Shown here one piece after another: positions 13-60,986 of a stretch of 64,000 nt of DNA (position 1 is its first letter; every line of letters begins with the position of its first letter). This DNA comes from a virus: positions 1 to 64,000 of the IMG/VR virus record IMGVR_UViG_3300009788_000007. One strand, given 5' to 3'. The notes beneath the pieces are model-generated. The model saw nothing but the letters and a program-made list of their open reading frames with translations, made no database searches and was not told the origin of the DNA. The translations under genes were made by a program, and so were the position numbers.

Positions 13-2524
13 TTATCTATTCCTTGTTATCCCTGCGTTCATAAATGATATCGTGGCCTCAAGTACTTTAATATGGTTAAGTAAACCCTTCCTATCCATT
101 GTAGATAAATCTGGCTGCACGTATTGGTACGTGTAATTTCTCTTTTGTTTGTACTCAACTATCAAAACCTCATCAGCCTGGGTGCTTTGCTCTACCCCTT
201 TGGGGTGCTGCAACACTAATTTAAATTTATGCTTAGGTGCAAGTTGGTCAACAGTTCTTTCTGTATTATTAAACGGTCCCCCCACCAGCCTTATGTTAGG
301 CATTATTTATTCTCCTTGTACTTATCAATAACTTTTTCAAATGGCGTCCCTGTTTTGTTTACTGATGCCCAGGACCATCTCCAACCCTGCGATTTAATTA
401 TAATTGCAAATTGTGTTGTGGCCTGTAAACCTATTAAAAAATCATTAGCATCTTTTATAGGTGCTAAAAAATCATTACGCCATGTCAACCCTGGGTTACT
501 ATTATTTTTAGGTGTATGGCTACGCGCTCTTAAATAAAATATATAATTTTTGTACTCCACATCAATAGTGTATTTATCATATCTGGTCACTGTTAATTTA
601 GTTCGCATCGTAAAACCTTTCTTCCTCATGTTTTGCGTACCTTTTAAAAAGTTTAATAAGGCACTCCATAATTGTTAAGCGCTCATGCCTATAAAAATAA
701 AGTGTATCATTCAATACATTTAAACTTTCTAAAAGGTACACATCTTTCTTTATTTTTACTGGTACCATTGGTGTTTTTATAACAGGTTCATAGCTTGATG
801 CTTTTTCACGCTTGGGTAAATTAAGCACAGCAATTTTTAAATTTTGCCATGTACCGTCCCAGGTCCCGCCTATTAGTAAAATCATTTTGTAAAACTTTTT
901 ATAAAAGTTACTATCATCCAAGCAAAAGCCCAGCTGCAGCTGCAATAAAAAATACATTCGTTAAGGCTCATTCGTCTTCCTTTTTTAATTCATGTAGCGA
1001 CCATACTAACATCATTAAACTCATACCAGTAAATAACCCTACTAAAAAATATCCTAATTGTTCACCAGTCATTCTAACCTTCCCATAAAGTTTTATCTTC
1101 ATTGTCTTTTGGCCCACATAATATTTTTACCATATTATAAGCGTGTAACTCTTTAGCAATCATAGCTGACTGCGTTAAATAAGATAAAGTTACTAACCTT
1201 AAATACCATGGTGTTTCTTCCTTAAGTTTATCTTTTACCTTTTTCCAAGATTCAATTTCATGGCAAGCAGTTTTATATTTTTCTATTCTTTCCTCTACGG
1301 ACATCATTAAAGTTTTATCAATAATCCTATCTAGCTTGCTCACTACTCAGCCTCCAATATTTCTAAAAGTTTATTCTGGTAAAAATCATCATGCACCCAT
1401 ACAGTTTTTGAAGTTCTAGAAAGGTCCTTGCATAACTTTTTAGGTATCCACATAAGTAATTTTTTACCGTCTACATCAAGCCTAAATAAATAGCTTTTAT
1501 CTGTCATACTTTTTATACTTACGTATTTAATTTTCATAGTGGTAAATGTTGTGTAGTTCCTACTATCACCTTCACCATCTAACATACGGTCAAAACCATC
1601 GTACATATCTGCCATGTCACCCATTACATAACCTCTTCCGTGTAACACTTACAATCTTCATACAATGGTGGTATTTGGCATTTATCTTTAATTACTATAC
1701 CATCTAAGGTATTGCACAATAAACCCTCTAAACTTTGTCTGCAAGGTTGGCAACATCTAAAAATTAAATTACTCATATCCTAAACTCTTCCGTCTCTGTA
1801 AGCTCATTTAGTATTTCTATAATATCGCACATAGCCTGCCCTTTGTTAACAACAGGGGTTACCTTAAACTGCAATTTCATTTATGCATACTGGTCATGCC
1901 CATTTTCGTCTACTGCGTATTTTTTAACCCAGTCATAGATTAAACTTTTAGCATGGTCTTTACTCATATTTTAAAATACCTCCTGCACATTTATAGCCCC
2001 ATGAAATTCTACTGCATCAATAAGCTTTTTTGCGTCATCGATACCTGCAGCTAATAGTGCCTTAAGTACAGGTAAACTATTTTTAGTAAAAGTCATATCA
2101 ATAACTTCTTCACCGCTTAATTTTCGTAAAGCATTTTTTAACTCGATGCTTAACGGGTTTGGGACATACTGCTGTGCTGGCCACCAAGTAAGGGTACTGC
2201 TCATTAGGGTAACTCCTTTAATTGTTTGTCTATACATTCGTTAATAGCTTCAAAATAATTTTTTAGGGTATCTTTATTAATTTCTATAATTTCTTTTGTT
2301 TTACTTATGTCTACATTCTCACATGCTCCTGGTGTGTGCTCCATAGCTAACTTTAAAGATTCAGCTAATAGGAGTGGTACAAAAGTAAACATTAAATTAT
2401 GCTCATCACAAAGTTTAGCTGCGTGCATAACTAAATCTTTACTTACTTTTTCACATTCATCATACGAGCTATTTTTATTTTCTTCATACTCGTCCATAAT
2501 ATCTTTAAAATTTTTCCTACCCAT
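13..2524 (-). CDS. Run of small hypothetical phage genes (13-303, 303-629, 598-957, 1074-1343, 1343-1648, 1971-2237, 2204-2524)
   Basis: Tightly packed or abutting minus-strand ORFs with natural protein composition; no recognisable motifs. Confidence 0.6.
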
Positions 2525-6135: not shown

Positions 6136-6948
6136 ATGAGTGAAGTAATTAAGTTTGAGGATGTTGAAGTGGAGCTATTTAGAGAGCATATAATGGTAAC
6201 TATTAAAGACACAGATTTTTTAGCAGAGTTAAGTAAAGAAGAGTTTTTAACCCTGTACGAAAAATTCATAAAGCCTGAAGTACCCGAAGTAATACCCGGC
6301 CAACACCTGCAAAAAATTATAGAGGATTTAGAGTATTACAAAGGCCCTGGGGATGTTATATGCAAAAGCGCCATTAGAATTATTAAAAAACTTGCAGTAG
6401 ACAATCAAGCATTAAATAATCAAATTGAAATTAATGGGTCTGTAGCGGCAGGCCCCAGGGGCGCACACCCTAGCCCATCCATAGCTGCATCAAAACACAG
6501 AGGAGAAATGCCATTTCAAATACTAAAAAGCACACGTATAGTACAGGTATCAGAAAAAGGTGTATCATTTGACCACATAAGGGATACAGTACACTTAACA
6601 CTTGATGAGCTTGTAGAAATGCAAAGAATTTACAGTAATCACCATAATGTCACGCTGTCACCTAAACCCAAAGAAGATAAATTTTACAGTGATACCCATG
6701 GCCGTTGGTTTAATTCCCAAACTGAAGAATTAATTTTTGGATTAGGGCTACAACAGCAGCAAATGAAAGACGCCCAAGCAAAAGCCAACAAAATAAAAGG
6801 GGAATACACAAATAACCTACAGCGCCTGGGAGAAGGTTTAGAAGCATTACTAAGTGTAGCAACAAAATTTGTGCCAGAGCTTAAAAGCATCATGGATGAG
6901 ACCCAATTAATGGAGGAAGATACAAAAAATAACTTTCACGGTGGGTAA
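6136..6948 (+). CDS. hypothetical protein (C-terminal coiled coil)
   Basis: 270-aa ORF with AAGGA RBS. Confidence 0.75.
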   Translation: MSEVIKFEDVEVELFREHIMVTIKDTDFLAELSKEEFLTLYEKFIKPEVPEVIPGQHLQKIIEDLEYYKGPGDVICKSAIRIIKKLAVDNQALNNQIEINGSVAAGPRGAHPSPSIAASKHRGEMPFQILKSTRIVQVSEKGVSFDHIRDTVHLTLDELVEMQRIYSNHHNVTLSPKPKEDKFYSDTHGRWFNSQTEELIFGLGLQQQQMKDAQAKANKIKGEYTNNLQRLGEGLEALLSVATKFVPELKSIMDETQLMEEDTKNNFHGG

Positions 6949-54535: not shown

Positions 54536-56044
54536 TCACTCGTCCATTTCAAGTTCGCTATCATCTTGGTTTGTCCCATCATCATCGGGGTCATCATCGT
54601 CCCCTGTAATAAGTCCTAAAGCTGGGCCTTCAGCTAAAATAGCTTCTATCTCATCTTCAATATTTACATTTTCAGATAACACACTTCGGCGTTTCAACTC
54701 AGTTAAAAATGTAGTTTGTGATATTTCTTTAGCAGCTCTCATGTTAAAAAGAATTGTTAAATCTTCTTTATTGCTAAACACCACACCAAAGTCATTAAAA
54801 ATATCAAATGAAAAATCTTTAGGTAATTTTTTATTTAACCACCGCGCAGAAAATTCTGCAGATTTATTTAGGGCTTCTTCTTCTCGCCTAATCCAAGCTT
54901 GTACAGCACTCTCATTGTCATTAGCATCAATGGCCCTACCAGTAGCACTTACAGAAGGGCTTGTAATAACCAAAGGTTCAGTACCTACCACAGTCATTTT
55001 ATTTTCGATATCCATGATATCATCTTGACCTACTTTAATTGAATTTCCTGAATGTTCTACCCATTTCATATCAGCCTCATGGTTCGCTGTAGCAAATTGT
55101 GCACGAGGTCCTATAGTAATACCATTATCTACTTGTTCTTGTGTGACACCTTTAATAAAAAGTACACCTGCACGTGCAACATTAAGTAAGCTGCGTTGGT
55201 CAGAGTATGATTGCCAATGTGTAAGGTTTAACCAAGCTAGTTTTAAAAATGGTGGCTTTGCTGTTAGGTCTCCATCTTGATCTGTGTAGTAAGTAACTAA
55301 AGGTATCTCCCCAAATGTATGTGTGTCACTTTCCTTTAGAACCCAAGTACTAGAGCTATCAGCATTTTTACTTTCTTGCCATAGTTCCCATTTTGTACGT
55401 GTCCATCTTTTAATTTGTTTAACTACTTCGTCCCCAAAATCACCTTCACTAGAAATAAAACTTTGAAAATACCTTATCTCATCTAACTTTGTGTCCTCTC
55501 CCACCTTCCAGAAGAACAAATTTAACGGCGAAATCTCAGACCATACAGGCCTTGCCCCTGCAGATTTTTCTTCTGCTATTGTGGCTGTTCTTGGCACATC
55601 ATTTTTATCAAAAAATTTCATTGTGTTAAAATCTACAAGTACATGTGAAAGGCCCCACTTTAAAGATGTTCTAAAAAGGTCATACCCAAACTGAGTTACA
55701 CTCCTGCCTTTTTTATCCACATCTTTAAAAACAGCTTCTAAAGCAGGGTCTAAACCTTCAGTAGGAGCCCATGTAACCTGTTTTTTAAATGGTTTTGCAG
55801 ACAGCCTATCAATAGTGTTTCCCAAACCTTCAAACAAAAATGATCTATCTAACCTGTTTTCATATGCAGTTTGTGATTCGGCTTCCTGCTTAGGTAGCCA
55901 CTTGGTAGCACCTTTACGCATTGCTTTTGTGCCATCAAGTAAATCTGATATTAAATCCCAAGAGAACTTTTCACGCATGGTATCATAGCGTACTGAAGGT
56001 GTAGATACATCAGCTTTTTTAGGAGTACTTACAGTGTTCACCAT
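54536..56044 (-). CDS. portal protein (DUF4055-like)
   Basis: GT.AMR.....WLP....ES..AY..RL.RS; EIPLV; PP...LA.LN..HWQ..SD; upstream of gpF-like, scaffold and MCP genes. Confidence 0.85.
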   Translation of the reverse strand: MVNTVSTPKKADVSTPSVRYDTMREKFSWDLISDLLDGTKAMRKGATKWLPKQEAESQTAYENRLDRSFLFEGLGNTIDRLSAKPFKKQVTWAPTEGLDPALEAVFKDVDKKGRSVTQFGYDLFRTSLKWGLSHVLVDFNTMKFFDKNDVPRTATIAEEKSAGARPVWSEISPLNLFFWKVGEDTKLDEIRYFQSFISSEGDFGDEVVKQIKRWTRTKWELWQESKNADSSSTWVLKESDTHTFGEIPLVTYYTDQDGDLTAKPPFLKLAWLNLTHWQSYSDQRSLLNVARAGVLFIKGVTQEQVDNGITIGPRAQFATANHEADMKWVEHSGNSIKVGQDDIMDIENKMTVVGTEPLVITSPSVSATGRAIDANDNESAVQAWIRREEEALNKSAEFSARWLNKKLPKDFSFDIFNDFGVVFSNKEDLTILFNMRAAKEISQTTFLTELKRRSVLSENVNIEDEIEAILAEGPALGLITGDDDDPDDDGTNQDDSELEMDE

Positions 56045-56818: not shown

Positions 56819-56968
56819 ATGAGGTTATTTAAGTATGATTTAGCAGCCTGCTCCCTATAGGGAGCGAGGGAGGGAGGTAAATAAATAGAAAAACCCCAAA
56901 TGACATAATCAAATGGGGTAAAAAGTAATTATTATGTGCTTAATATTATAGCAGATTTCTTATCTGGT

Positions 56969-57753
56969 TTATACTCTGTTCAATCCTTCCATTAAAATTT
57001 CTAAGGCTTTGTACTGGCTGTGGTGGAAAATTGTTTTACTCCTATCGTTTGCATTCTGAGCGTGAATGTACTCATCACAGTGTTTTTTGAATTCATCTTG
57101 ATAAATCTTTTTTAATTCTTCTTTTTCCATAATCTTCAATTCTTTCTGCCCTTGTTGGGCTGTTGGTGGTTAAGAAGTCGTTTCGATAGGGGTTATTTAG
57201 AGTTGACTGAATTTTTAAAACACTCAAAACTTAAGTACCCTAGATTTAAGTTAATTTTTCTTTGTTTGTAGATATCGTATGCCAATTCTATTTCCTTCAA
57301 TGTGTATTTCATAATCTTCAAATCTTTCTTAAGCATTTCTGCTAATCAATGGCCAGCGTCCCGCCTCGTATTCTTTTAAATCTGGGGCCGGTACGTACAC
57401 CCCATCTTTTGCTTTTTTATATTTTTCAAGTGCCAAAATATTTAAGTGGTCTTGTGGGCATGTGTGCCTTGTTTGCCGCGCTGTTATAAATTTTACTACT
57501 TGCATGGCTCTGACCAAACATTAGTAATTTCAACATCATTTTTAAACTGCAGAAATAAATATCCATGTAAATTATATAATGGCGTGCCTTCTTCTTTTTC
57601 GAAATCAAAATCAAAATAGTCTATATTTATTAGTTCTGATACAAGGGATTCGCAACCCGCAACTTCAGATAAAATACTTTGATCTATTGTTTTAATTTCA
57701 CCGTTACCTTCAAAATTAAGTTTCATAATCTTTTCACCTTTTGTCATTTCCAT
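56969..57753 (-). CDS. cluster of small early-type genes (57496-57753, 57329-57517, 57193-57312, 56969-57130)
   Basis: Downstream of the boxed promoter at 57760-57791; the two shortest ORFs were read manually and share the AGAAAGAWTTGAAGATTATG leader. Confidence 0.55.
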
Positions 57754-57759
57754 ATAACT

Positions 57760-57791
57760 ATAATACTAAACTACTGTACAGATGTACAGCA
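57760..57791 (-). promoter_or_regulatory. sigma70-like promoter overlapped by LexA-type box (57774-57789)
   Basis: TGTACA-17-TATTAT; CTGTACATCTGTACAG. Confidence 0.7.
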
Positions 57792-58248
57792 GAATAGTAT
57801 ATATTTTTAAAATTAGTTTAAATGTTTGAATTTTGCTGCATAGTTAACACATTTTATTAAAGCCTTGGCAAATTTACGTGCCCTTTTATCACTTTTTGGC
57901 CTGTGGTCATTAAAAAATATGGCCGTATCTACCATAGGGAATTTGTCTGATAACTTCTGCTTAACAAATTCCTGCAAAAATATAGGTTGTGGCTTATTCA
58001 TAATAAAAACTCCTTTTGCTAAGTCCTGTTACTTATGTAAAATCCCCAGGCACAAAGTACCTAGGGTAAAAAGTATTTGCTAATCTTTTTTCTTTGGCCA
58101 AAATTTAGAGATTAGCCAAACTGTGATATTTAATATCACAGTAAGTATGATAGCTGACCATATGATATAGCCAATATCTCCTTGTCTTGCCTCTCCTGGA
58201 AAGTCTTTTGCAATTAATAGTAGCATAATGTATACTCCTTTCTACTAG

Positions 58249-58283
58249 AAAAAGGCCCTGTTAACAGTTAAGTTAACAGGACC
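58249..58283 (-). terminator. rho-independent terminator
   Basis: CCTGTTAAC...GTTAACAGG stem followed by a T-run on the minus strand. Confidence 0.55.
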
Positions 58284-58304
58284 ACAAACTAAAAGACTTA
58301 CTTT

Positions 58305-58937
58305 TTAAAGATCTTTGATACCTTGCATAATAGCTTCGATCTTTTGTATAGCAACGGTATGAAAAACTACTTCTGTGTTTGCTTTTTCTTTTTTCACATC
58401 GTCTGCAGCCTTCACAGCTTCATTAGCTGCTAATTCTGCTTTTGCTTTTAGTTCTCCATGCTTCTGCACTGCTTCCTCCAGTGCCTTAAGCATTTCTTCT
58501 TTGTCTTTTTGTACCATAGGCGGTACCCTCCTTTCTGGCCTTTTGGCCGGTTAGTTGTTTTGTTTTATTTAGCTTAAAACATCCTCCACATTTGCTACCC
58601 ATTTAGCCTTGCGGCCATCACTAACACCCTCACGTTTACTATGTGTGGCTTTAACAATCTTAAACCATGTGTCTATCATGTCATCTTTTAATTCGTGAGT
58701 TATCCAGTCACGACCACCTATGATTAGCTCAACTTTTCTACGCAAGCCAGAACCCAGCACTACTTGCGCTTTCCAGTCAACACCTACTTTATGTTGGTTA
58801 GTTACTTGCCCTTCTATTTGGTTATCCCTCACTGTATCAATAATGTGGCTCTTACTGATGAGTGTTTCTATTGATTCAAAAATATCTTTCATTTTGTTTC
58901 CTTTGTCAGTTGTCATATAAATATTATCGTCTATCAC
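58305..58937 (-). CDS. two hypothetical early-type proteins (58305-58517; 58569 to about 58892)
   Basis: AGGAGG and AAGGA RBSs; downstream of the boxed promoter. Confidence 0.6.
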
Positions 58938-58954
58938 TGTATGCGTGTACAGTA
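58921..58954 (-). promoter_or_regulatory. sigma70-like promoter overlapped by LexA-type box (58937-58952)
   Basis: TGTACA -35 with GATAAT/TAATAT -10 region; CTGTACACGCATACAG. Confidence 0.65.
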
Positions 58955-59029: not shown

Positions 59030-59469
59030 GTACAGGAGGAAGGGCATACCGACCCTTCCCTTAATTACATCCTAGCATTGGAAGATACTCTCAATAATTA
59101 ATTCCTGCACAAAATGGTGGGATCTGCCAGATGTTTCCAGCATCGTGACTTTCTAATCACCGCAAAGGCTGTTAACCTTGAACGCCCATAATATGGGAGG
59201 AAGGGGAGGGACTTGCACCCCCTTTTAAATCCCCTCATCGCGTTTAGGGAAATACGGCTATCCGCTGCCTCGATTCTTCAGCATCACTTCCTATAAAAAA
59301 AATATGGTGGACGCGGCTAGGTGAGGGTGTCCCTCGATGTTCCCTACCCGTTTCCATGTAAAAATTGATGCTCGTTTGCCTCGTCACTTAATTTTAATGG
59401 TGATATTCTAGCCTAGATTGCTTATCGGTTAGGCGGTGATCTCTTATCACTATTGGCTATCCATTAAAA
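59030..59469 (-). ncRNA. array of structured, partly tRNA-like small RNAs
   Basis: Five GC-richer self-complementary units separated by AT-rich spacers; three end in CCA on the minus strand. Confidence 0.6.
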
Positions 59470-59492
59470 ATAACATCTGCTTAACAGTATAC

Positions 59493-60986
59493 CTAAATAT
59501 CAGTAATCGCAATACCACCTTCTTCAATTGGGAATTTATTGACCACATAGTACCCTACTGCATCGGAAATGTGGGTTAAATGCTTTTCTGACTTTTTATC
59601 AATCTCGCCGCTGCCGCCCTCGACCACAGAAACACCTTCAAAATCTTTTACCACATGTGGTGCGTTATCGGGGTCAACTAAAAACCTTATCTGGCCGTCC
59701 ATAGTTTGTATACGTGAATTCATAGCATTAACACGCACACGCTCTGGTCCGTTTTTATTTGCAACTCTATATTTTAATCGAGTGCCAAACACAGGTTTTA
59801 ATTTCTTGCGTATCAAATCCCAGTCAGACCCGGCTACCTTTGCGCTGCCCTGATTACCCCCTGTAGAATCACCATATAAATATACATCACCTGTATGGTG
59901 TTTCCAGTCTTTGATTATTCGGTCACAGACTATCAATGTATTTGAATGCCTGGGAATATAAACTTCACCTATTACTGCAGTGAATCGTCGGGACACCTTT
60001 GGGTTTTTGCCTTTATACAATTGCTCCTGCATAACTGCACAAACACCTGGAGCGATATTAAAATCAAAGGCTAAGATAATATCTTTGTCTGGGTCGTAAT
60101 CTAAAGATTCAACGGCGTGCACCTCTGAATCAAAATCATAATAGGCCCTGCCCTGGAAATTAATAAAGAGCCCCAGGACCTCCTGCCGATATGACAGCTC
60201 ATCCATGTCAGCTTTCATGGCTTCAATTTCACTCGGGTCTAAAATGTCTTCAGCTGACCAATGGAAGTACCCCCAATTTTTATTACGCTTACCTTTGGCC
60301 TTCATTGCCAAATCGTAGTAATGGTTGCGCCCTTCAGGTACACCGATAAACCAAGCGAACCCAGGGCGGCCTATGGTGGCCAAAGCTGGACGGATATGGT
60401 CTATCCATGCAGTCTTTTTCATGTTGCCGAACTCGTCAAGTATGATGCCATCCAGAGGTGAGCCCTCAATACGCTCCGGTTTGTCCATCCCCATCACCTG
60501 GATTTTAGGACCATGTACCAATGTAATTGTCAAGTCAGATTCTGATATTTTGTCAACACAGGATTTAGGCACCAGCTGTTTCAGGTCTTCCCAGTAGATT
60601 TGCTTAGCCTGGGCTCTGGTGGGCGCTGCAGCCACAAACCACCCGTTAGCGTGCATACAACGCAAGGCTTTGATAATAAGTGCCCTTTTGCAGTATTCCG
60701 TCTTACCAGAGCGCCTGCCGGACGGTACAACGACAAAACGCTTTATTCCCGACACGATGGTGTGGTACAGCGCTAAACGTTCCTTGTGTGGCCTGAGAGG
60801 GTACCAGCGATGCCCCAGGGTGGTGTTTACGGCCTGCTGTATGGCGTCATCGGCTTCCTTGAGGGATGCAGCCTTGATCTCATTCTCACCAATAGGGTCT
60901 TTTTTGGCTTTTTTTGGGTGTTTTAAGGCCTTCTGCCCTTTGACCAAGCGCACCGATTTCTTCAAATTTACTGATTTTGTGGTCAT
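59493..60986 (-). CDS. terL: terminase large subunit
   Basis: Walker A GRRSGKT, APTRAQAK, Walker B IILDEF, IGVPEG, nuclease FDFN, YGDSTG and HISDAVGY. Confidence 0.95.
   Translation of the reverse strand: MTTKSVNLKKSVRLVKGQKALKHPKKAKKDPIGENEIKAASLKEADDAIQQAVNTTLGHRWYPLRPHKERLALYHTIVSGIKRFVVVPSGRRSGKTEYCKRALIIKALRCMHANGWFVAAAPTRAQAKQIYWEDLKQLVPKSCVDKISESDLTITLVHGPKIQVMGMDKPERIEGSPLDGIILDEFGNMKKTAWIDHIRPALATIGRPGFAWFIGVPEGRNHYYDLAMKAKGKRNKNWGYFHWSAEDILDPSEIEAMKADMDELSYRQEVLGLFINFQGRAYYDFDSEVHAVESLDYDPDKDIILAFDFNIAPGVCAVMQEQLYKGKNPKVSRRFTAVIGEVYIPRHSNTLIVCDRIIKDWKHHTGDVYLYGDSTGGNQGSAKVAGSDWDLIRKKLKPVFGTRLKYRVANKNGPERVRVNAMNSRIQTMDGQIRFLVDPDNAPHVVKDFEGVSVVEGGSGEIDKKSEKHLTHISDAVGYYVVNKFPIEEGGIAITDI

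Follow-up and report, generated by a model that had tools for sequence, protein, structure and literature searches.

A serine-type tRNA-like element with a closed anticodon arm behind a phage large terminase gene, possibly a non-decoding tRNA mimic

The gene-free stretch behind the large terminase gene (terL) of the uncultured phage represented by IMG/VR record IMGVR_UViG_3300009788_000007 contains a class II tRNA-like element, apparently derived from tRNA-Ser, whose anticodon arm is closed into a short hairpin (element (b); 59194–59291, minus strand). We suppose, with a probability of about 40%, that this element is a selected, non-decoding tRNA mimic. Coordinates given without a locus label refer to the window, i.e., the whole stretch of 64,000 nt that was analyzed; it comprises bases 1–64000 of the 80.6-kb record, which possesses direct terminal repeats.

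The gene terL (59493–60986; minus strand; 497-aa ORF) was assigned from a match to Pfam Terminase_6N slightly under the cut-off and from homologues numbering in the thousands. It lies just upstream of a gap on the same strand, where approximately 560 nt 3′ of terL carry no credible gene; all five elements discussed here, (a)–(e), are located inside this gap. Two small ORFs within it (59098–59238 and 59244–59387) were rejected, having an odd composition and no ribosome-binding site ahead of the ATG. The next unit is opened by a promoter-like site (TGTACA, 17 nt, GATAAT; 58923–58951, minus strand) overlapping a CTGT-N8-ACAG palindrome (CTGTACACGCATACAG). This unit is a cassette of small genes (56820–58937, minus strand; approximately 2.3 kb) with seven ORFs of 47–122 aa, none of which has a PHROG match. 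The portal gene (54536–56044) lies beyond the run of small genes downstream of the gap. The cassette sits between the gap and homologues of the first two downstream genes of a related phage, L002 (IMGVR_UViG_3300023223_000198), which has no such cassette. Nine neighboring small proteins gave zero matches to PHROG families, and a search for a CCA-adding enzyme, Pth2 and RtcB found none encoded by the phage; therefore, the gene context gives no pointer to a tRNA-related pathway.

A preliminary description of this locus had proposed five structured minus-strand RNAs, none of them able to decode. The five stretches are present at the coordinates it gave, the stems it listed are the minimum-free-energy pairings, and the lack of decoding capacity is confirmed. 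No hairpin with a 5-bp stem and a 7-nt loop in the tRNA register was found anywhere in the gap (5-7-5 scan). ARAGORN predicted no tRNA either in the window or in the whole 80.6-kb genome, and its tmRNA search was also negative. An Rfam search of the window produced nothing at gathering score and nothing tRNA-like even at E ≤ 10; at neither level was there a match to RF00005 (tRNA), tmRNA or the YrlA/bacterial Y RNA-like family RF02553. Canonical tRNA calls, named in that description as the contrary outcome, are thus absent by both programs. Running ARAGORN with introns and lowered thresholds yielded noise only.

The layout of the gap agrees with the earlier comparison to phage tRNA arrays, which rested on short AT spacers. 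Spacers of 13, 6 and 4 nt, containing no G or C, separate the units (c), (b) and (a); the spacer between (c) and (b) is UAUUUUUUUUAUA (59292–59304, minus strand). GC content of the units is 63% for (c), 54% for (b) and 51% for (a), compared with 38% for the window. CCA ends are found where they had been noted, (a) ending in ACCA, (b) in UCCCA and (c) in ACCA. The motif CCMCCATWTT occurs seven times in the window against 0.89 expected, and among these only the pair located inside the gap is preceded by 73-nt stretches with strong folding (approximately −22 kcal/mol versus −2 to −13). The suggestion that the structures exceed chance holds for part of the set: compared with dinucleotide shuffles, z equals −2.58 for (c), −3.60 for (d) and −2.74 for (e), whereas (a) (−1.45) and (b) (+0.92) do not stand out. 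Fold stability by itself cannot demonstrate selection, and (a) and (b) are the weakest cases in this respect. Taken over the entire gap, neither strand stands out: z is −2.48 for the opposite strand and −2.07 for the strand carrying the elements. A blastn search of the gap against 50,697 INPHARED phage records, with a sensitivity of roughly 65–70% identity and above, found no match, and in a comparison with 80 related IMG/VR loci all matches were attributable to chance. An attP-type tRNA fragment was also considered and set aside on grounds of position and form, given a location behind terL and structures that are more than plain 3′ halves.

The tRNA origin of (b) is shown by a covariance model. 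Two models were built from phage tRNAs: R1 represents 54 of the type with an extended variable arm (Leu, Ser, Tyr), and R2 represents 80 class I tRNAs. R1 matches (b) over its full length (59195–59291, minus strand; 25.8 bits, E 3e-4), and this is the sole R1 match in the 64-kb window; real phage tRNAs score 37–88 bits under the same model. R2, applied to the gap alone with filters off, reaches 10.3 bits on (b) and covers no more than its 3′ part. Because the R1 match is full-length but scores below the range of real tRNAs, (b) is tRNA-derived, yet far from a working tRNA.

The acceptor stem of (b), GGAAGUG/CCCUUCC, retains six of seven pairs, with one U-C mispair. Its 5′ strand begins with GGAAG, which among the 54 class II phage tRNAs is found in tRNA-Ser only. 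It also carries G1-C72 and G2-C71, pairs conserved in bacterial tRNA-Ser; together with the long variable arm and G73 they mark class II tRNA-Ser (PMC9976931). The discriminator of (b) is U, compared with the G73 preferred by SerRS; U73 is also found in some phage tRNA-Ser. The UCCCA tail contains one surplus base (U-CCCA). The D arm is GCUG/CAGC, with AG and no GG within the first nine bases of its loop, and the long variable arm comprises 6 bp (UUCCCU/AGGGGA). In place of a 17-nt anticodon arm there is a 12-nt hairpin, GCGG-AUAG-CCGU, and the R1 alignment skips this part of the model. With the arm closed by a 4-bp stem and a 4-nt loop, (b) cannot read a codon. Serine identity itself is independent of the anticodon, which SerRS does not read (PMC9976931). 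An alternative arm, AUUUC-CCUAAAC-GCGAU (anticodon UAA), was rejected, as it has C33 and one mismatch and costs the variable stem. In total, 25 of the 26 stem pairs are intact, and the whole element folds no better than its shuffled versions.

The T arm of (b) (59206–59222, minus strand; GGGGG-UGCAAGU-CCCUC, 5 bp and a 7-nt loop) had been recognized in the preliminary description, and its loop can be placed among known ones. The core 16-mer of this arm (GGGTGCAAGTCCCTCC) is present in 73 IMG/VR loci with 74 occurrences, at least 38 of them within tRNAs or tmRNAs called by ARAGORN, and several others in obvious tRNAs missed by this program. Since the 16-mer recurs inside called phage tRNAs, we consider UGCAAGU a genuine T-loop variant that phage tRNAs often carry. 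In a set of 353 unique phage tRNAs, those with a UUC T loop have a D-loop GG in 164 cases and lack it in 4, while those with a UGC T loop lack the GG in 77 cases and have it in 15. This pattern looks like an A18/G55 elbow in place of G18/U55. As a UGC T loop goes without the D-loop GG in 77 of 92 phage tRNAs, the D and T loops of (b) still fit each other.

T loops with UGCRA (G at position 55) instead of UUCRA are found in many phage tRNAs of loci L082–L154 and L269–L296 (e.g., L148:4658-4747, L113:1975-2059 and L275:6179-6264), and tRNA-Ser of this type is often missed by ARAGORN. In contigs of GTDB genomes (L298–L319) variant-elbow tRNA-Ser lies within tRNA arrays on MAG contigs, which probably are phage or prophage arrays. 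Of the 22 hits in these contigs, nine carry the label Verrucomicrobiota (Akkermansia and Limisphaerales among them); the labels could hint at the hosts of phages using the variant tRNA type. The UGCAAGU T loop is also present in the tRNA-like domain of phage permuted (two-piece) tmRNAs predicted by ARAGORN at L092:4696 and L143:7737, with the tag ANDEVYDLAIAA.

A pattern scan combining a serine-type acceptor with the variant T loop finds ordinary tRNA-Ser genes, many of which ARAGORN overlooks, and one element built like (b), at L270:2698-2786. The latter possesses GGAAG/CUUCC, a 12-nt hairpin (GAGGUCGCUCCU) at the anticodon position, a long variable hairpin and the UGCAAGU T loop. The same phage carries a second tRNA-like element with a closed arm (L270:4151-4218; 68 nt). 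L270 is a 90-kb phage contig with six normal tRNAs. A loose script for anticodon-less tRNA-like sequences, which flagged 175 of 703, mostly normal tRNAs, served only to pick examples. On the MAG contig L307 (approximately 2060–2133, minus strand) there is a copy of the phage tRNA-Ser(GCU) of L272 and L276 that lacks 11 nt of the anticodon arm; the deletion either arose naturally or is an error of assembly. In L084 (approximately 6690–6745, minus strand), a 5′-truncated tRNA-Leu(CAA), extending from the anticodon loop to CCA, lies directly behind a complete tRNA-Leu(CAA), and a full-length version of the truncated gene exists in L097.

Relatives of terL were collected from IMG/VR and metagenome contigs by alignment search, with the C-terminal half of terL as an additional query. 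Among the matches listed, several hundred relatives, L002 is the closest (67% terL identity), and the C-terminal query gave nothing closer among the matches listed. Outside these collections the five closest terL relatives are P0002–P0005 and P0007 (66–74% identity; ENA and Logan); the comparison of gaps covers L002 and the more distant relatives. In approximately 147 of the relatives listed, at terL identities of 56% or less, the next gene abuts terL with no gap, which is why the gap can be taken as a kept feature of a small lineage. ARAGORN found no tRNA near terL in 60 related IMG/VR loci. L002 has a 470-nt gap behind terL, followed by homologues of two small genes of the window and then by the portal gene.

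The gap of L002 contains two pieces with canonical GGTTCGAATCC T arms. One of them, element 2 (L002:1775-1857; z −3.0), combines a 9-bp acceptor stem, one long arm, a T arm with the loop UUCGAAU and a GCCA tail; the R1 alignment places AUGUG-GAAAA-CACAU, with a 5-nt loop, at its anticodon position. It scores 24.1 bits with R1 and 21.3 bits with R2. In Rfam it matches tRNA-Sec below threshold and mascRNA-menRNA at 15.4 bits, far below threshold. A 22-mer of this element matched its own contig only. Just past the terL stop, L002:1572-1612 forms a 41-nt mini-helix with a 5-bp acceptor-like stem and the T arm GCAGG-UUCGAAU-CCUGU but no CCA (19.5 bits against Rfam tRNA, below threshold). A terminator-like hairpin is present in this gap as well. 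Two related phages, the only ones among the matches listed, thus keep a non-decoding tRNA-like element behind terL. MAFFT gave no real alignment of the two gaps except for ACTNTTAAGCAG, which directly follows the terL stop (59472–59483 in the window; L002:1567-1578) and is the sole stretch common to both. Because their T loops differ in type, the elements of the window and of L002 may be independent insertions at a hot spot and not one conserved gene.

The remaining elements were classed as tRNA-like in the preliminary description, a view that stands for (b), by its R1 match, and is not supported for the others: (a), (c) and (e) are generic hairpins, and (d) resembles a terminator. Element (a) (59115–59187, minus strand; minimum free energy −21.9) is 73 nt long and ends in ACCA; it has the size of a tRNA and is not tRNA-like by profile. 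It consists of three hairpins (6 bp with a 3-nt loop, 5 bp with a 6-nt loop and 7 bp with a 4-nt loop) closed by GGG/CCC. With filters off, R2 gives it 2.0 bits, which come from the CCA end only, and a 17-mer scan found chance matches in coding DNA only. Its anticodon-like loop CUGGAAA was rejected, having no T arm or acceptor stem in register. Element (c) (59305–59355, minus strand; minimum free energy −20.3) is a GC-rich extended hairpin of 51 nt that ends in GUCCACCA, with an inner stem GAGGG/CCCUC and a 3-nt loop. Its 4.6 bits under R2, again with filters off, likewise reflect the CCA end only, and the 17-mer scan returned one chance match in coding DNA. The closing helices ahead of ACCA in (a) and (c) comprise just 3 bp. 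Element (e) (59392–59469, minus strand; minimum free energy −15.2 kcal/mol) is an AU-rich three-way fold closed by UUUUAAUGG/CCAUUAAAA, with no hit to R1, R2 or Rfam. No T arm was found in (a), (c) or (e). These three elements appear to have no tRNA likeness past GC-rich hairpins and, in (a) and (c), the CCA end.

Element (d) (59030–59110, minus strand) is a branched fold with a 3′ hairpin and a U tract. An intrinsic-terminator-like site at 59060–59037 comprises nine pairs followed by the U-rich CCUGUACUUU, and the promoter-like site lies beyond it. Most simply, (d) is the predicted intrinsic terminator of the terL transcript. No promoter-like site was found between terL and (d).

We propose that the terL 3′ UTR may be the remains of a small tRNA-gene array, or may have been built from one, with (b) as its core. 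The region and terL would share a late transcript that runs as far as the terminator in (d). Host tRNA-maturation enzymes would then excise (c), (b) and (a) at the spacers free of G and C, RNase P cutting the 5′ ends and RNase E with exonucleases trimming the 3′ ends. Element (b) keeps the parts read by tRNA-handling proteins, namely acceptor pairs, matched D and T loops, a variable arm and a CCA-type tail. It could thereby occupy a protein that recognizes tRNA shape or the acceptor end, e.g., a defense nuclease or an acceptor-modifying toxin, and it might be charged by SerRS, for which the anticodon is not required. Elements (a), (c) and (e) would be accessory hairpins for processing or stability, or separate small RNAs, and not tRNA mimics.

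This reading is favored because L002, the nearest listed relative, holds an anticodon-less tRNA-like element in the same gap, because nearly all stem pairs of (b) are intact while its T arm, acceptor and R1 match point to a tRNA origin, and because closed-arm tRNA-like elements are found in other phages (both elements of L270). The contrast between GC-rich units and spacers devoid of G and C, the terminator-like (d) with no internal promoter-like site ahead of it, the matching D and T loops of (b), the anticodon-independent identity of tRNA-Ser and the gap itself, which the approximately 147 more distant relatives lack, speak in the same direction. It is weakened by the fold z-scores of (b) and (a), by the R1 score of (b) below the range of real tRNAs, by the extra base of the tail and the discriminator U in place of G73, by the different T loops and non-aligning gaps of the window and L002, and by a gene context that gives no pointer to tRNA-related functions.

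In an alternative that we regard as possible but doubtful, the gap holds decaying remnants of a former tRNA cluster behind terL. Element (b) would then be a tRNA-Ser pseudogene short of approximately five anticodon-arm bases, (a) and (c) older wrecks keeping their CCA ends, and nothing would be selected except perhaps the terminator. Every element fails the tRNA detectors ARAGORN and Rfam, and (b) has a U-C acceptor mispair, an extra C in the tail, a score of 25.8 bits where real tRNAs reach at least 37, and a fold no better than shuffles; (a) and (c) have no remaining tRNA likeness. Truncated or internally deleted tRNA copies are known in other arrays (the tRNA-Leu of L084 and the tRNA-Ser of L307), and the DNA separating terL from portal varies, the present phage having 2.3 kb of small genes there that L002 does not. 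However, useless DNA is quickly lost from phage genomes, and a gap of approximately 500 nt persists in both lineages having one, against approximately 147 relatives without it. Decay is also hard to reconcile with 25 of 26 stem pairs remaining intact, with an anticodon loop that in both phages is not disrupted but closed into a tidy hairpin, and with the hairpins of (a), which are longer and tighter than tRNA arms and not what random decay yields.

A role in cis only is, in our opinion, unlikely. According to this explanation the units would shield the terL mRNA against degradation by 3′ exonucleases, or they would be cutting points at which RNase P or RNase E detaches it from the RNA further downstream, so that the tRNA-like shape of (b) would be a processing signal alone and no free RNA would have a role. 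Such signals exist: tRNA punctuation of mitochondrial transcripts and mascRNA at the end of MALAT1 are tRNA-shaped processing signals. The elements are indeed bounded by the terL stop on one side and a terminator-like hairpin on the other, and no promoter-like site belongs to them; the L002 gap too has a terminator-like hairpin, and L002 element 2 weakly matches mascRNA-menRNA, at a score far below threshold. Nevertheless, the approximately 147 relatives express terL without such a region, and a single terminator hairpin would suffice for stability. It is very improbable, finally, that all elements other than (b) are chance folds in a GC-richer spacer, the apparent array resulting from boundaries picked at CCA triplets. 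The modest z of (a), the 3-bp closing helices of (a) and (c), the about equally good folding of the opposite strand and the failure of 17-mer scans to find homologues of (a) and (c) would fit such an explanation; the excess of CCMCCATWTT, whose gap copies alone follow strongly folded 73-nt stretches, and the sharp change from GC-rich units to spacers devoid of both bases argue against it.

Returning to the mimic reading of (b), one may speculate further that L270:2698-2786, the L307 form, L002 element 2 and (b) itself make up a class that recurs among phages, namely serine-type tRNAs in which the anticodon arm is closed on purpose. We consider this extension a long shot. If true, such RNAs would undergo maturation and, as SerRS pays no attention to the anticodon, might also be serylated, but would never decode. 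They could be decoys for defense enzymes attacking the acceptor end or the tRNA shape, or serine carriers outside translation, and the present phage would keep a tRNA mimic while holding no working tRNA. 

Recent work has presented phage tRNAs as weapons against tRNA-cutting defenses. In a phage that retains a closed-anticodon tRNA look-alike but lacks any working tRNA, the uses of tRNA shape alone could be examined cleanly. The serine type matters here, being among the few identities chargeable without the anticodon. If (b) is only a dying gene, the locus is ordinary.

Non-decoding tRNA-like phage RNAs, such as RNAC and RNAD of phage T4 (“species 1 and 2”), have been known for fifty years; RNAC and RNAD are processed like tRNAs and are CCA-ended. 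They belong to the late class and are described as “RNAs of yet unknown function” (PMC9697503). Element (b) would resemble them as a small, late, non-decoding phage RNA that occurs with, or instead of, tRNA genes. However, T4 RNAC and RNAD are located beside eight working tRNAs and their expression has been shown, whereas the present phage has no working tRNA.

The closest structural counterparts of (b) are ordinary class II tRNA-Ser genes of phages (L148:4658-4747, L138:6059-6150 and L272:3082-3167), which share with it GGAAG.../...CUUCC, the D arm, the long variable arm, the T arm GGGGG-UGCAAGU-CCCUC and an AT-rich spacer after the gene. Element (b) differs from them by a 12-nt hairpin in place of the 17-nt anticodon arm, by UCCCA in place of G/U-CCA and by its R1 score (25.8 versus 37–88 bits).

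Several phage tRNAs are known to counter bacterial defense: T5 tRNA-Lys counters PARIS (PMC11464382), other phage tRNAs counter retron and further effectors (PMC11555353), and anticodon-loop variants are found among the defense-countering tRNAs (PMC10264068). Element (b) shares the tRNA shape with these molecules, which act toward host tRNA-targeting nucleases. Unlike (b), they decode, either replacing cut host tRNAs or escaping the cutting. Since (b) cannot decode, the roles left to it would be those of decoy or competitor, for which we found no demonstrated case among phage RNAs. Fremin et al. (2023) reported tRNA-like structured RNA candidates from IMG/VR that are only sometimes called by ARAGORN (PMC10690425); those candidates show covariation over many copies, whereas (b) has a single distant counterpart. 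Element (b) adds one more to the unexplained tRNA look-alikes known from phages; the gap does not hold an array of five such elements.
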